Translations under genes and position numbers: made by a program
Source of the DNA: Escherichia phage vB_EcoM_G8
Direction: 5' to 3' (one strand)
Length of the DNA: 64,000 nucleotides
Sequence record: NC_054915.1
The notes under the pieces: generated by a model
What the model saw: only the letters and a program-made list of their open reading frames with translations
The model's database searches: none
What the model was told of the DNA's origin: nothing
Shown: piece by piece, positions 13,539-17,616 of the stretch
How positions within the stretch are numbered: the stretch's first letter is position 1
Layout: each line of letters starts with the position of its first letter

Positions 13539-14219
13539 TTATTTTAATGTTACGAAAGAAGAGTTGCGTGTTTCACGAATTAAAACTGATCCATCACGAT
13601 TAATGTAATAAATTAAGCTAAATAAAGTTTGGTGTGCTGACGCATGCTCAAAACTAGTTGGGTGAGATTTCCAATCCGGAGTTTCAGCTATCCATTGATA
13701 AATCCACCAAGGAACAGTGCAGAATCCTGGATTTTTTCCAATCAGCTGAAGATTCGGACTAAAGTTTTCCGGAAGAGTAAATACAGACGGCTTTTCAGAT
13801 TCAATAATCTCAGCTACAGCCTGTTCAAATTTTTCTTCAACAAAAGGAGTATCTTCAATCAAAACTGAGGTATTTTCAGGAATTTTATCCGTTTCTACTA
13901 CTTCAATTTTAATGTCAGATTTAACCGGAGAATCAATCAGAAGTGCTGCTTCTGGATTGACTTCTTCATCGTCATATTTTAATCCCTCTGCGGCATCAGC
14001 AGCATCAATTAAGTCTTTAATAGATAACCCATCAGTCTCTGGCATAGGTTCACTAGCGAGCTTCTGGAGGGCTTCTTCAATATCATTAACGATATTATCA
14101 AAAGATTTATTCTTTTTGACCTTTATACCAAACTGTTCAGCATATTCAGCTAATTTAGCTTTAGCTTCTTTGTTATCATCAAGAGCCTTCAGCTCTGCAA
14201 TATAATCTTTATCTATCAT
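13539..14219 (-). CDS. inh: inhibitor of prohead protease Inh
   Basis: 226 aa ORF immediately upstream of hoc on the same strand, as in T4. Confidence 0.8.
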   Translation of the reverse strand: MIDKDYIAELKALDDNKEAKAKLAEYAEQFGIKVKKNKSFDNIVNDIEEALQKLASEPMPETDGLSIKDLIDAADAAEGLKYDDEEVNPEAALLIDSPVKSDIKIEVVETDKIPENTSVLIEDTPFVEEKFEQAVAEIIESEKPSVFTLPENFSPNLQLIGKNPGFCTVPWWIYQWIAETPDWKSHPTSFEHASAHQTLFSLIYYINRDGSVLIRETRNSSFVTLK

Positions 14220-14232
14220 AATATTTCCTCAG

Positions 14233-14240
14233 TATAAATA
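14233..14240 (+). promoter_or_regulatory. late promoter TATAAATA (uvsW)
   Basis: Exact motif 30 nt upstream of uvsW ATG. Confidence 0.65.
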
Positions 14241-14269
14241 TAGATATATTTATTACATGGTATTTAGAC

Positions 14270-15781
14270 ATGACTGACATTAAAGTACATTTTTATGATT
14301 TTAGTCACGTGAGAATTGATTGTGAAGAAAGTACATTTCATGAACTCCGTGATTTCTTTAGCTTTGAAGCTGATGGGTATCGTTTTAATCCGAAGTACAG
14401 ATATGGCCACTGGGATGGACGAATCCGTCTTTTAGATTATAATCGACTTCTTCCATTCGGCTTAGTCGGGCAAATTAAAAAGTTCTGTGATAACTTTGGC
14501 TATAAAGCCTGGATTGACCCACAAATTAACGAAAAAGAAGAATTATCAAGAAAAGATTTTGATGAATGGCTTTCTAAATTAGAAATCTATTCAGGAAATA
14601 AAAGAATTGAACCACATTGGTATCAAAAAGATGCAGTGTTCGAAGGATTAGTTAATCGTCGTAGAATTCTTAATCTTCCAACATCCGCTGGTAAATCGTT
14701 AATTCAAGCTTTGCTTGCGCGATATTATTTGGAAAATTATGAAGGTAAAATTCTTATCATTGTTCCAACAACTGCTCTGACAACTCAGATGGCTGATGAC
14801 TTCGTCGACTATCGTTTATTCAGCCATGCAATGATAAAGAAAATTGGTGGCGGAGCATCAAAAGATGATAAATATAAAAATGATGCACCAGTCGTTGTTG
14901 GTACATGGCAAACTGTAGTAAAACAACCGAAAGAATGGTTCTCACAGTTTGGAATGATGATGAATGATGAATGCCATCTTGCTACAGGAAAAAGTATTTC
15001 ATCTATCATATCAGGTTTAAATAACTGCATGTTCAAATTCGGTTTGTCTGGTTCATTACGTGATGGCAAAGCCAATATCATGCAGTATGTTGGAATGTTT
15101 GGTGAAATATTTAAGCCAGTAACGACTTCTAAGTTAATGGAAGATGGACAAGTAACTGAGCTAAAAATTAATAGTATTTTTCTTCGCTATCCCGATGAGT
15201 TCACTACTAAATTAAAGGGAAAAACTTATCAAGAAGAAATAAAAATTATTACTGGGCTTAGTAAAAGAAATAAATGGATCGCTAAATTAGCTATTAAGCT
15301 TGCACAAAAAGATGAAAACGCTTTTGTCATGTTTAAACATGTATCGCATGGTAAAGCTATTTTCGATTTAATTAAAAATGAATACGATAAAGTTTATTAC
15401 GTATCAGGGGAAGTTGATACCGAAACCCGCAACGTAATGAAAACTTTAGCTGAAAACGGTAAAGGAATAATTATAGTAGCGAGTTATGGTGTATTTTCTA
15501 CTGGTATTTCAGTTAAAAATCTGCATCACGTTGTTTTAGCGCATGGTGTTAAATCAAAAATCATTGTATTACAAACAATCGGTCGTGTATTACGTAAGCA
15601 TGGTTCTAAGACAATAGCAACGGTCTGGGACCTCATAGATGACGCGGGCGTAGTTTCTAAATCAAAAACATCTTCTAAAAAATACTCGCATTTAAACTAT
15701 CTTTTAAAACATGGACTTGATCGTATTCAGCGTTATGCTGATGAAAAGTTTAATTATGTGATGAAAGAGGTTAAACTTTGA
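14270..15781 (+). CDS. uvsW: UvsW DNA/RNA helicase (SF2)
   Basis: 503 aa; Walker A-like PTSAGKS, DEAH-like MNDECH; late promoter upstream. Confidence 0.9.
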   Translation: MTDIKVHFYDFSHVRIDCEESTFHELRDFFSFEADGYRFNPKYRYGHWDGRIRLLDYNRLLPFGLVGQIKKFCDNFGYKAWIDPQINEKEELSRKDFDEWLSKLEIYSGNKRIEPHWYQKDAVFEGLVNRRRILNLPTSAGKSLIQALLARYYLENYEGKILIIVPTTALTTQMADDFVDYRLFSHAMIKKIGGGASKDDKYKNDAPVVVGTWQTVVKQPKEWFSQFGMMMNDECHLATGKSISSIISGLNNCMFKFGLSGSLRDGKANIMQYVGMFGEIFKPVTTSKLMEDGQVTELKINSIFLRYPDEFTTKLKGKTYQEEIKIITGLSKRNKWIAKLAIKLAQKDENAFVMFKHVSHGKAIFDLIKNEYDKVYYVSGEVDTETRNVMKTLAENGKGIIIVASYGVFSTGISVKNLHHVVLAHGVKSKIIVLQTIGRVLRKHGSKTIATVWDLIDDAGVVSKSKTSSKKYSHLNYLLKHGLDRIQRYADEKFNYVMKEVKL

Positions 15782-16470
15782 ATTATAAATTAATATATGA
15801 TAATTTAATTAATAGAGCCCAGAATCGGGCTCGCCTTAATGGATACACTGAAACACATCATATAATTCCTAGATGTATGGGTGGTACAAATGATAAGTGT
15901 AATTTAGTAGAACTAACGGCTGAAGAACATTTTATAGCCCATAAACTTTTAGCTAAAATTCATCCAAACCATTACGGTATAATTAAAGCTGTTATATGTA
16001 TGGGGATGAATTCAAATACTCATGAAAGACACGTCAATAAATCTTACGCATGGGAACGTCGTAAAATGGCAGAACTTCAATCCGGCGAAGGTAATCCATT
16101 TTACGGAAAACACCATACGGAAGAACATAAACAATATATGTCAAAACTCATGAAAAGTCGTCCAATTACATGGGGAAATAAAATTAGTAAAACTAAAAGA
16201 ATGAACCCAACGAAATGGACTGAAGAAGCTAAAAGATTACATTCAATCAATCAATCGGGTAAAAATAACGGCATGTATGGAAGGAAACATTCCGCTAAAT
16301 CTATTCAGAAAATTAAAGATAACATGCCAGATAATTCAGGAGCTAATAACCCAGCTGCTAAACCTATAGAAGTAAATGGTGTTAAGTATAAATGTATGAA
16401 AGATGCTTCTAAAGCTACTGGATTATCAATGTACAAACTAAGAATACTTAGAAAAACAGTCAATTTATAA
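15778..16470 (+). CDS. HNH-family homing endonuclease-like protein with NUMOD-like repeats
   Basis: 230 aa; no in-frame ATG near N-terminus, TTG at 15778 overlaps uvsW TGA; HNH motif ETHHIIPRCMGGTNDKCNLVELTAEEHFIAH; repeats GEGNPFYGKHHTEEHKQYMS and GKNNGMYGRKHSAKSIQKI. Confidence 0.75.
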   Translation: MNYKLIYDNLINRAQNRARLNGYTETHHIIPRCMGGTNDKCNLVELTAEEHFIAHKLLAKIHPNHYGIIKAVICMGMNSNTHERHVNKSYAWERRKMAELQSGEGNPFYGKHHTEEHKQYMSKLMKSRPITWGNKISKTKRMNPTKWTEEAKRLHSINQSGKNNGMYGRKHSAKSIQKIKDNMPDNSGANNPAAKPIEVNGVKYKCMKDASKATGLSMYKLRILRKTVNL

Positions 16471-16482
16471 GGGCTTCGGCCC
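16471..16482 (+). terminator. UUCG hairpin between HNH gene and uvsW.1
   Basis: GGGC-TTCG-GCCC followed by TTTGGAG. Confidence 0.4.
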
Positions 16483-16495
16483 TTTGGAGAAAAAG

Positions 16496-16726
16496 ATGTT
16501 ACTAAAATTTAAACAATTTCTTTATGAAGCTTCTATTGATGAATTTATGGGTAAAATTGCCTCTTGTCAAACATTAGAAGGTTTAGAAGAACTTGAAGCT
16601 TATTACAAGAAAAGAGTCAAAGAAACTGAATTAAAAGATACTGATGACATCTCTGTGAGAGATGCTTTGGCAGGAAAAAGAGCTGAATTAGAAGATTCAG
16701 ACGATGAAGTAGAAGAAAGCTTTTAA
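16496..16726 (+). CDS. uvsW.1: UvsW.1 small acidic protein
   Basis: ATG 16496 after GGAGAAAAAG gives 76 aa (track ORF 16484 is longer); acidic C-terminus. Confidence 0.75.
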   Translation: MLLKFKQFLYEASIDEFMGKIASCQTLEGLEELEAYYKKRVKETELKDTDDISVRDALAGKRAELEDSDDEVEESF

Positions 16727-16736
16727 ATTAAAAAAA

Positions 16737-16759
16737 GGCCCAACCAAAAAGGAAGGGCC
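16737..16759. terminator. hairpin between convergent uvsW.1 and uvsY.-2
   Basis: GGCCC-13 nt-GGGCC, A/T-rich flanks. Confidence 0.4.
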
Positions 16760-16782
16760 AAAACTATAGACTAAAGGTCACA

Positions 16783-16950
16783 CTATAGCAAAAGTTGTGT
16801 TTCATTTAATTGTTCTTCCGAACTTTCTGAAACTGGTAGTTCTTTAATGTAATTATAGCAAGGCCCAGGATGTACAGGACCTTTGTCTGTTTCAACAACC
16901 AATGCAGAATCGATTGGAGTTTTACAGACAACACAAATCTTATCTGACAT
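16783..16950 (-). CDS. uvsY.-2: small Cys-containing protein (uvsY.-2 position)
   Basis: 55 aa ORF not in track (<60 aa): MSDKICVVCKTPIDSALVVETDKGPVHPGPCYNYIKELPVSESSEEQLNETQLLL; SD GAGGAGACAATC upstream. Confidence 0.6.
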   Translation of the reverse strand: MSDKICVVCKTPIDSALVVETDKGPVHPGPCYNYIKELPVSESSEEQLNETQLLL

Positions 16951-16978
16951 GATTGTCTCCTCTGAATTATATATCTAT

Positions 16979-17203
16979 TTATACAACTCTCATATGCATA
17001 TCAATGCCCATATCTTTAGAATAAAAATATTCATCAAGATATCCGGCAAATTTTCCTTTAATATAAAGGACATCTTCACCACACGGGTGGTCGGCCAGGA
17101 TACGAATATCCTGACGCTTAAGATTATGCTTTTTCATTAAGAATTGAATTTCCGTTTCAAATTCTTCTTCATAATTAAAAGCATCATCAATGCTATATTT
17201 CAT
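16979..17203 (-). CDS. uvsY.-1: hypothetical protein (uvsY.-1 position)
   Basis: 74 aa, start overlaps uvsY stop. Confidence 0.7.
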   Translation of the reverse strand: MKYSIDDAFNYEEEFETEIQFLMKKHNLKRQDIRILADHPCGEDVLYIKGKFAGYLDEYFYSKDMGIDMHMRVV

Positions 17204-17616
17204 TATTTTCCAGCCTCAAATGCTCGCATGTCTTGAATATGCTTAATAGCAAATCCACGTGATTTAATAGCATCAAGAGCTCCGCTACAGAAATCTAATA
17301 AAATTCCCCAATATTGTAATGAAGTATCAACCTTTAAAACATCCTTATCAGCTGATAAAACTGTCTTCATTTCTGATTTCTCGTAACGATCCATACTAAA
17401 TTCATCACCATCTCCTCGTCCCGAGTAGTAGTCTAATCTAGCTTTAAGAGCAACTTTTTTCTGTGCGTCAATTCTAAGCATTTCCTTTTTAATACTTGAA
17501 TGCTTATTAAGCCATTTACTATATAACATCACATTATTAGCTGCTTCATACTGTAATTTAGTCGAATCTATAAACACATCTTTCTTCAATTCTTCTTGAA
17601 GATCTTCTAATCTCAT
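17203..17616 (-). CDS. uvsY: recombination mediator UvsY
   Basis: 137 aa MRLEDLQEELKKDVFIDSTKLQYEAANNVMLYSKW…; MotA-type promoter upstream. Confidence 0.9.
   Translation of the reverse strand: MRLEDLQEELKKDVFIDSTKLQYEAANNVMLYSKWLNKHSSIKKEMLRIDAQKKVALKARLDYYSGRGDGDEFSMDRYEKSEMKTVLSADKDVLKVDTSLQYWGILLDFCSGALDAIKSRGFAIKHIQDMRAFEAGK

Follow-up and report, generated by a model that had tools for sequence, protein, structure and literature searches.

A TTG-initiated gene for a predicted MobE-family HNH homing endonuclease inserted into the 3′ end of uvsW of Escherichia phage vB_EcoM_G8

What is the origin of the open reading frame (ORF) that separates the recombination genes uvsW and uvsW.1 in Escherichia phage vB_EcoM_G8, and how might it be translated from a codon other than ATG? 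We analyzed this locus in a window of 64,000 nucleotides (nt) of the sequence record NC_054915.1, which is a segment of a T-even (Tequatrovirus) genome. The ORF (15778-16470, plus strand) codes for 230 amino acids (aa) from a TTG codon. A preliminary description of this DNA had presented it as an HNH endonuclease gene whose start overlaps the uvsW stop codon, a description that our analysis supports both in its facts and in its main interpretation. What had been missed is that the insertion interrupts uvsW itself, at a point 18 nt 5′ of the ancestral stop codon, and is accompanied by a replacement of the uvsW tail. From its sequence, and by analogy with phage T4 MobE, we consider it likely that the product of the ORF is an active, free-standing MobE-family homing endonuclease of the HNH type, composed of an HNH domain, two NUMOD3 motifs and an I-TevI-like C-terminus, which moves by homing into the uvsW/uvsW.1 junction.

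The ORF was found as described. Its TTG codon (15778-15780) overlaps the TGA of uvsW (15779-15781), forming the sequence TTGA. A TAA codon in the endonuclease frame (15772-15774), two codons 5′ of the TTG, precludes any 5′ extension. An ATG does not occur in this frame until codon 34 (within the CMGG segment), 3′ of the His-His pair that belongs to the HNH motif. This leaves TTG as the sole canonical start, and the claim that no in-frame ATG is present near the N-terminus holds. The start site is not bare, since a GAGG Shine-Dalgarno (SD) sequence (15767-15770) precedes it with a spacer of 7 nt. In the orthologues occupying the same junction the start is always an NTG codon, placed at exactly the same position and overlapping the uvsW TGA: (i) TTG in the window type, UPEC01/L028, PSD2002 and L030, (ii) GTG in PM2 and L031, and (iii) ATG in Roth77, L029 and a Morganella phage. 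All of these proteins, as well as T4 MobE, share the N-terminus M-N-Y. On this comparison of sequences, the conservation of NTG and M-N-Y settles the position of the start at TTG 15778. TTG or GTG is used in six of the nine lineages, and ATG in three. Weak start codons have thus appeared repeatedly, even with the variable base being a free wobble position in the last uvsW codon. A sequencing error as the origin of the TTG was ruled out, and with it an upstream ATG that correction of such an error would create: the TTGA junction and the intact ORF are identical in all nine carrier genomes fetched.

In the automated annotation of phages FL08 (L007:2100-2693) and UPEC01 (L021:2597-3196), the endonuclease begins at the internal ATG, codon 34, which removes the catalytic His-His pair and leaves an apparent gap of 95 base pairs (bp) after uvsW. 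Annotation restricted to ATG codons thus truncates the catalytic motif. These two truncated calls, together with the non-ATG start, might be taken as signs of a decaying, defunct endonuclease gene, which has lost its ATG and is no longer translated. We regard this as very improbable, given the strong purifying selection over the entire ORF (codons 1-33 included), the GAGG sequence at the ideal spacing of 7 nt, the recurrence of TTG and GTG starts in six of nine lineages beside ATG in the other three, the intact catalytic residues, and the loss of the catalytic His-His pair that a start at codon 34 would entail. Still less credible is a UvsW-endonuclease fusion generated by programmed frameshifting at the overlap, with no independent initiation. 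The ORF does overlap the stop codon of uvsW and is shifted by −1 from the uvsW frame, but direct reading of the junction in the uvsW frame revealed no slippery heptamer of the canonical type, an in-frame TAA is located two codons 5′ of the TTG, true start codons are found here in the orthologues, and T4 mobE starts at an ATG in a different overlap geometry (TAATG).

The HNH motif reported in the preliminary description, THHIIPRCMGGTNDKCNLVELTAEEHFIAH, is present in the ORF. The catalytic motif spans residues 27-55 (HHIIPRCMGG...N...EEHFIAH; 15856-15942, plus strand) and displays the HNH ligand arrangement HH...N...H...H (THHIIPRCMGG...N42...EEH51FIAH55). Residues H28, N42, H51 and H55 are invariant in an alignment of 58 homologues. 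The NUMOD-like repeats also proved to be real, as Pfam NUMOD3 matches twice (51.8 bits versus a cut-off of 20.4). The first NUMOD3 DNA-binding motif, which is the best Pfam stretch, comprises residues 94-122 (16057-16143, plus strand), and the second, NUMOD3-like stretch (GKNNGMYGRKHSAKSIQKIKD) comprises residues 161-181 or thereabouts (approximately 16258-16320, plus strand). The I-TevI-like C-terminal domain is only suggestive. Its helix-turn-helix-like region (residues 193-218; 16354-16431, plus strand) was recognized on weak, sub-threshold evidence, the match to PF20987 reaching 14.7 bits, which is under the cut-off of 27. A sequence search of the PDB did not find I-HmuI; its sole match was the I-TevI DNA-binding domain (1i3j), to which residues 157-216 align with an expectation value (E) of 0.006, and Foldseek returned the same structure with a probability of 0.97 and an E of 0.14.

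A BLASTP comparison with the T4 Mob proteins, which had been proposed as a check, identified MobE (42% identity over 181 residues, E 8e-34). Among the five T4 matches, the best is the gene located between nrdA and nrdB, i.e. mobE. The ORF also matches PHROG 655, annotated as ‘homing endonuclease’ (3.9e-60). The AlphaFold2 model has a predicted local distance difference test (pLDDT) value above 94 for residues 1-70, i.e. the nuclease domain, with a mean of 84. The family assignment rests on sequence rather than on structure. On these grounds the predicted product is a free-standing HNH homing endonuclease of the MobE family. The gene is located between uvsW and uvsW.1, not in an intron or an intein, and is present or absent among close relatives.

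How the gene is accommodated became apparent from an alignment of the junction in nine carrier and nine non-carrier Tequatrovirus genomes. In comparison with the empty site of T4 and T2, the carrier contains an insert of 689 bp (15764-16452, plus strand), whose boundary can be placed only to within 3 nt, as AAA is present at both ends. It interrupts uvsW 18 nt 5′ of the ancestral stop codon of that gene. The empty site reads ...GTAATG – AAAACAGTTAATTTATAA – GGGCTTCGGCCC..., and the filled site reads ...GTGATG – AAAGAGGTTAAACTTTGA ATTAT...CTTAGA – AAAACAGT(T/C)AATTTATAA – GGGCTTCGGCCC... (dashes mark the boundaries of the segments). The uvsW helicase gene of the window (14270-15781, plus strand; 503 aa) takes its last six codons from the insert. 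This replacement tail, AAAGAGGTTAAACTTTGA (15764-15781; K-E-V-K-L-stop), holds the GAGG sequence, the 7-nt spacer and the TTG, and changes the C-terminus of UvsW to MKEVKL, versus MKTVNL in T4 and T2. The displaced native tail, AAAACAGTCAATTTATAA (16453-16470, plus strand), is found at the other end of the insert, where it encodes KTVNL and the stop codon of the endonuclease, being read in the same frame as originally in uvsW. It is identical to the uvsW end of T4 and T2 at 17 of 18 nt (18 of 18 in T6, PST and the other carriers), and the single change in the window, GTC for GTT, is synonymous.

The UUCG hairpin and the SD sequence of uvsW.1 were correctly predicted 3′ of the ORF: GGGCUUCGGCCC follows it directly, with the hairpin GGGCTTCGGCCC at 16471-16482, GGAG at 16486-16489 and the uvsW.1 ATG at 16496-16498 (all on the plus strand). 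This region (16471-16498) is the same in the empty T2 site and is therefore outside the mobile insert. The native context of translation initiation of uvsW.1 (16496-16726, plus strand; 76 aa, with PF11637 in the orthologous loci) is thus unchanged.

The same design of the tails was found in other phages. It reads ATTAAACAGGTGGAAATTTGA ... ATTAAACAGGTGGAAATATAAtg in UPEC01 and AAAGAGGTTAAATTGTGA ... AAAGAGGTTAAATTATGA in PM2, where AAAGAGGTTAAATTGTGA ends uvsW, and a duplicated or replaced uvsW tail is also present in PSD2002 and in the variant locus of phage YenM_P8. Gaprivervirus genomes lacking the gene read ...GTAATTAAACAGGTGGAAATATAATGAA..., and an ‘empty’ construct, from which the gene and one repeat had been deleted, aligns to these genomes in one 600-nt piece. 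In the repeat-bearing genera other than Tequatrovirus the native uvsW stop codon overlaps the uvsW.1 ATG, so that a signal for translational coupling is present twice as a result of the repeat. Of the two copies, the upstream one has been edited there (ATA TAA to ATT TGA), and the downstream one is unaltered. A clear repeat was not seen in four lineages (Roth77, L031, L030 and L029), nor in the Morganella phage.

The full-length gene is present, at the same place, in 47 of approximately 497 Tequatrovirus records with uvsW/uvsW.1 flanks (about 9%), with 96.7-99.9% nucleotide identity; 23 further partial megablast matches show 90-95% identity. The carriers include T6 (AP018814, EcT6_00183; MH550421, T6ORF179), Yersinia phage PST, ACG-C40, UFV-AREG1 and EC121. 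The comparison of the junction across T-even phages, also suggested earlier, thus found the gene in T6, PST and others, and a clean empty site in T4 and T2. The statement that T4 has no gene at this junction and carries segE upstream of uvsW was confirmed on both counts. The carriers do not constitute a clade in the flanking DNA, because 135 sites are polymorphic in both the carrier and the non-carrier group. The closest homologues (54-70% identical, from public assemblies) all occupy the uvsW/uvsW.1 junction of other T4-like phages, i.e. Roth77-type Klebsiella phages, Gaprivervirus (UPEC01), Escherichia phage PSD2002, a Morganella phage, Proteus phage PM2 (Bragavirus) and several metagenomic contigs. 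In these orthologous loci, the flanking genes carry the UvsW Pfam domains and PF11637 (UvsW-1), and orthologues occupy the junction in four or more named T4-like genera.

Databases already contain the gene, which is annotated in public genomes, yet uncharacterized. It is entered as a homing endonuclease in T6, PST, ACG-C40 and others, being labelled ‘mobD’ with the note ‘MobE’ in PST and ‘MobE’ in ACG-C40, and most existing annotations likewise begin at this TTG, overlapping uvsW by 4 nt. Our literature searches found no publication characterizing it, and the review of Edgell et al. lists only segE at uvsW (PMC2988022). What the present analysis adds to the known gene is the architecture of the insert, the conservation of the site and of NTGA across genera, and a bounded variant tract linked to the gene.

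This tract is located at the 3′ end of uvsW (15646-15763, plus strand). In a scan of positions 14200-17250, all 30 fixed differences between the carriers and the non-carriers fell within 15646-15760, with 22 of them in the 49 bp of 15646-15694; none was found 3′ of the insert or elsewhere in the scanned region. The last 144 nt of uvsW are only 69-72% identical to those of T2 and T4, versus 98% for the preceding 300 nt, and at the protein level GVVSKSKTSSKKYS stands in place of GVKPKSANTKKKYV. The tract occurs at 95% identity or more in exactly 47 records, the same number as the gene, the two sets having been compared by count only. A database search for its donor revealed no other record exceeding approximately 74% over the full length, and the best match among the orthologous loci was PSD2002 (73%). 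The idea that such a tract generally accompanies the gene was rejected, as none was seen in Gaprivervirus.

Where might the target of the enzyme lie? The native sequence is retained in the upstream copy of the repeat until approximately 4 nt from where the stop codon ends, and in the downstream copy from position −18 or −21 onward; the target escaped by the carriers must therefore span the repeat, or else be part of the recoded tract. It is conceivable, although rather doubtful, that the site is placed in the recoded block 15646-15694 (87-135 bp 5′ of the uvsW stop) and that the tract is the determinant of immunity, the alternative being a target that spans the insertion point. Such a site would agree with the concentration of 22 of the 30 fixed differences in 49 bp, with the equal counts of 47 records for the tract and the gene, and with the fact that T4 MobE nicks the recipient nrdB at nt 122-126, downstream of the mobE position (PMC2790892). 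However, carriers and non-carriers of Gaprivervirus differ, apart from the tail, at only a single fixed position of the final 330 nt of uvsW, and immunity in that genus must therefore come from the insertion or duplication itself. In addition, tight linkage and a divergence of about 40% would alone suppress recombination within the tract.

The selective constraint on the gene was estimated from the nine Tequatrovirus carriers. The pairwise ratio of nonsynonymous to synonymous substitution rates (dN/dS) is 0.03-0.06, with synonymous divergence (dS) of up to 0.155, and all nine copies are intact, which points to strong purifying selection over the whole ORF, including codons 1-33. These low ratios and the lack of any degenerate copy would also be expected of a domesticated nuclease, kept for the benefit of the phage either through marker exclusion of co-infecting relatives or through cooperation with the recombination functions of UvsW and UvsW.1; the retention of the gene at the same junction across several genera and the wiring of its translation between two recombination genes agree with such a role. 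We nevertheless consider domestication improbable: the gene is present in only about 9% of the Tequatrovirus records, which fits an optional element, it is found on varied flanking backgrounds, and its nearest characterized relative, MobE, acts as a mobile element (PMC2790892). Moreover, exclusion and homing can coexist.

With respect to transcription, the nearest promoter-like element upstream on this strand is the T4 late-promoter consensus TATAAATA at 14233-14240 (plus strand), 30 nt 5′ of the uvsW ATG, whose promoter function is presumed from the T4 consensus. No other exact copy of TATAAATA is present on the plus strand between this element and the endonuclease gene. A separate promoter just upstream of the gene was rejected, as this region contains no exact TATAAATA and 11 sigma-70-like sites, versus 12.7 in shuffled sequences. 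With the TTGA overlap and no TATAAATA or above-chance sigma-70-like site just upstream, the sequence fits a dependence on upstream expression in the style of mobE. Just within the ORF, TATAAATT (15784-15791) differs from TATAAATA by one mismatch. Transcripts from it would start 3′ of the TTG, and for this reason it was treated as coincidental, as is probable in AT-rich sequence.

Two RNA structures were predicted around the start. Folding of 66 nt yielded an 11-bp stem (15745-15755 with 15769-15779, plus strand), which covers the GG of the SD sequence and the first two bases of the TTG. PM2 forms an equivalent stem with two compensatory pairs. Conservation of this hairpin in all orthologues was rejected, as it was found in the window type and PM2 only. 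The second structure is a GC-rich hairpin inside the gene (GAGCCC-AGAAUC-GGGCUC; 15815-15832, plus strand), located 37 nt 3′ of the start, with a predicted free energy (dG) of −13.2 kcal/mol and a z score of −3.0. Such a hairpin, 30-55 nt into the coding region, was obtained for all ten sequences folded, i.e. the gene of the window, eight other orthologous loci and T4 mobE (z −3.0 to −4.4), and its stems are unrelated in sequence across the loci. The divergent YenM_P8 gene reaches a z of only −1.25. In T4 the internal hairpin of mobE terminates 30-50% of transcripts (PMC2790892). The hairpin described here is homologous in position to that weak intrinsic terminator and, by analogy, may have the same function. 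Coupling through the UAAUGA overlap has already been proposed for T4 mobE (PMC2988022), and weak coupled translation of the endonuclease, as put forward in the preliminary description, is a reasonable inference from this analogy.

Taken together with the behavior of T4 MobE (PMC2790892, PMC2988022), from which we infer co-transcription, coupled translation, cleavage, the target site and mobility, these data suggest the following course of events. The gene, having no promoter of its own, would be carried on the late uvsW transcript. Ribosomes would initiate at the UUG (15778) that overlaps the uvsW UGA, using the GAGG sequence within the last uvsW codons, so that output would be tied to the translation of uvsW and lower than it; the internal hairpin may reduce output further, as the T4 mobE attenuator does. 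In a mixed infection, the enzyme would nick or cut the 3′ end of uvsW or the uvsW.1 junction of relatives that lack the gene (T4- and T2-type alleles), and recombinational repair would transfer the gene to the recipient, together with the neighboring 115-bp variant tract of uvsW, by co-conversion. Homing of this kind would explain why a sharply bounded 115-bp patch of inter-genus-level divergence is present in an essential recombination gene that is otherwise 98% identical. The signs of homing are indirect: the patchy distribution on recombinant backgrounds, the linked variant tract and the occupancy of the site across genera.

Several observations weigh against an active homing endonuclease of this type, or against parts of the proposed course. 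The match to the Pfam HNH model (PF01844) reaches 16.2 bits, which is under the gathering score of 21.4 (E 0.012), though this model does poorly on the whole Mob subgroup, most homologues also having no precomputed PF01844 hit. So low a dN/dS is unexpected for a purely selfish, cyclically decaying element. The Gaprivervirus carriers have no divergent upstream tract, because of which the Tequatrovirus tract may be a co-converted, hitch-hiking remnant of donor DNA rather than a determinant or requirement of self-immunity; moreover, no donor of it was identified. The stem at the SD sequence and start codon is modestly above shuffled sequences (dG −8.7 kcal/mol, z −2.0) and is not formed in UPEC01 or Roth77, and the internal hairpin has a poor U-tract. 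Finally, the nuclease activity, the target and the super-Mendelian inheritance of this gene are predictions.

More tentatively, these genes may represent a lineage specialized on translationally coupled junctions. At each colonization of the uvsW/uvsW.1 site it would generate, or be selected to keep, a repeat of approximately 18-21 bp of the uvsW terminus, whose upstream copy is edited (TAA to TGA, ATG to TTG or GTG) into a throttled start and whose downstream copy keeps the context of uvsW.1. The length of the repeat would then be a lower bound on the target, and the recoded uvsW block of Tequatrovirus would be a self-immunity determinant driving change in UvsW. We think this extended proposal somewhat unlikely as a whole, but if true it would define a reusable ‘minimal-harm’ insertion architecture for free-standing homing endonucleases, of which no description was found in the literature examined. 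In any case, the locus offers a well-delimited, apparently active MobE-family endonuclease at an experimentally unstudied site, for which a specific target is predicted (the final 20-140 bp of uvsW in T4 and T2), and its ATG, GTG and TTG variants constitute a natural series for studying how phages throttle selfish nucleases by translational coupling. It is of modest interest to specialists in homing endonucleases, and does not overturn the current view of these enzymes.

The gene order on the window is hoc, inh (13539-14219, minus strand), uvsW, the endonuclease ORF and uvsW.1, followed on the minus strand by uvsY.-2, uvsY.-1, uvsY, 25 and 26. As had been noted, the gap between inh (ending at 14219) and uvsW (starting at 14270) is 50 bp and does not contain segE. 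T6 and PST carry both segE 5′ of uvsW (L001:876-1493 and L002:876-1493, respectively) and the HNH gene 3′ of it, and uvsW is thus bracketed there by two homing endonuclease genes. The phage of the window (14220-14269) and several others (FL08, UFV-AREG1 and vB_SsoM_113) carry the HNH gene only.

In Yersinia phage vB_YenM_P8 (PP693301; L034:618-1403) a different endonuclease of 261 aa, with an ATG start, occupies the same uvsW/uvsW.1 junction. It shares the HNH N-terminus MNYQKIYDDLI, has an unrelated, longer C-terminal region and keeps the same duplicated native tail (FIKQVEI and the stop codon), which suggests domain swapping within a site-specific lineage.

Other irregularities were noticed in or near uvsW. 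In Proteus phage PM2 (MF001355; L022:745-1620) this gene is annotated in two pieces (1-754 and 1583-2503), and a 291-aa ‘hypothetical protein’ ORF that separates or overlaps them may represent another mobile element inserted within the helicase gene. A Logan contig (DRR827159; L025:2897-3595) contains, between uvsY.-2 and uvsY, a 232-aa ORF with no Pfam hit, where related phages hold only short ORFs; it may be another optional insertion. The uvsW gene of T6 is represented by two ORFs (uvsW and ‘uvsW-B’) in MH550421 (L003:1497-3004) versus a single intact 502-aa gene in AP018814 (L001:1496-3004), which is likely a frameshift or an assembly difference. The old T4 reference AF158101.6 reads AATTTAATAAGCTTCGG (L004:2795-2815), and T2 and a recent T4 assembly (L013 and L005) read AATTTATAAGGGCTTCGG; this difference is the historical sequencing error by which uvsW and uvsW.1 were joined in a single 587-aa ORF (noted in PMC1524935).

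Among the known systems, the gene of T6, PST, ACG-C40 and others is the same gene, which is located at the same place with 96.7-99.9% nucleotide identity and, in most records, starts with a TTG overlapping uvsW; unlike T6 and PST, the phage of the window has no segE 5′ of uvsW. T4 SegE is a GIY-YIG homing endonuclease, encoded between inh and uvsW, whose target is listed as uvsW (Edgell 2010 review, PMC2988022). Both are encoded by free-standing genes that flank uvsW and vary in presence among T-even phages, but they belong to unrelated nuclease families and lie at opposite ends of uvsW. In its modular composition (an HNH domain, NUMOD-type elements and a helix-turn-helix-like C-terminal module), the predicted protein resembles the HNH homing endonucleases of the I-HmuI and I-TevIII type and the I-TevI DNA-binding domain (1u3e, 1i3j).

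The nearest characterized relative is T4 MobE, a free-standing HNH homing endonuclease encoded between nrdA and nrdB (Wilson & Edgell 2009, PMC2790892). Its gene is promoterless, the enzyme nicks nrdB of T2, and over-inheritance is HNH-dependent (PMC2790892). The gene described here resembles mobE in (i) the protein, with 42% identity, the MNY N-terminus and the same HNH motif, (ii) its location between two co-transcribed genes, with a start overlapping the upstream stop codon, (iii) the lack of a promoter consensus directly 5′, (iv) a GC-rich hairpin approximately 30 nt into the coding region, and (v) a patchy distribution among T-even phages. It differs in its site, uvsW/uvsW.1 rather than nrdA/nrdB, in its TTG start with the TTGA overlap, versus a mobE ATG that overlaps the TAA of nrdA (TAATG), and in the C-terminal third of the protein, which cannot be aligned with that of T4 MobE. 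The replacement tail of the upstream gene and the ending in a displaced tail are features of the uvsW-site gene, the comparison of tails having been made at uvsW junctions only.

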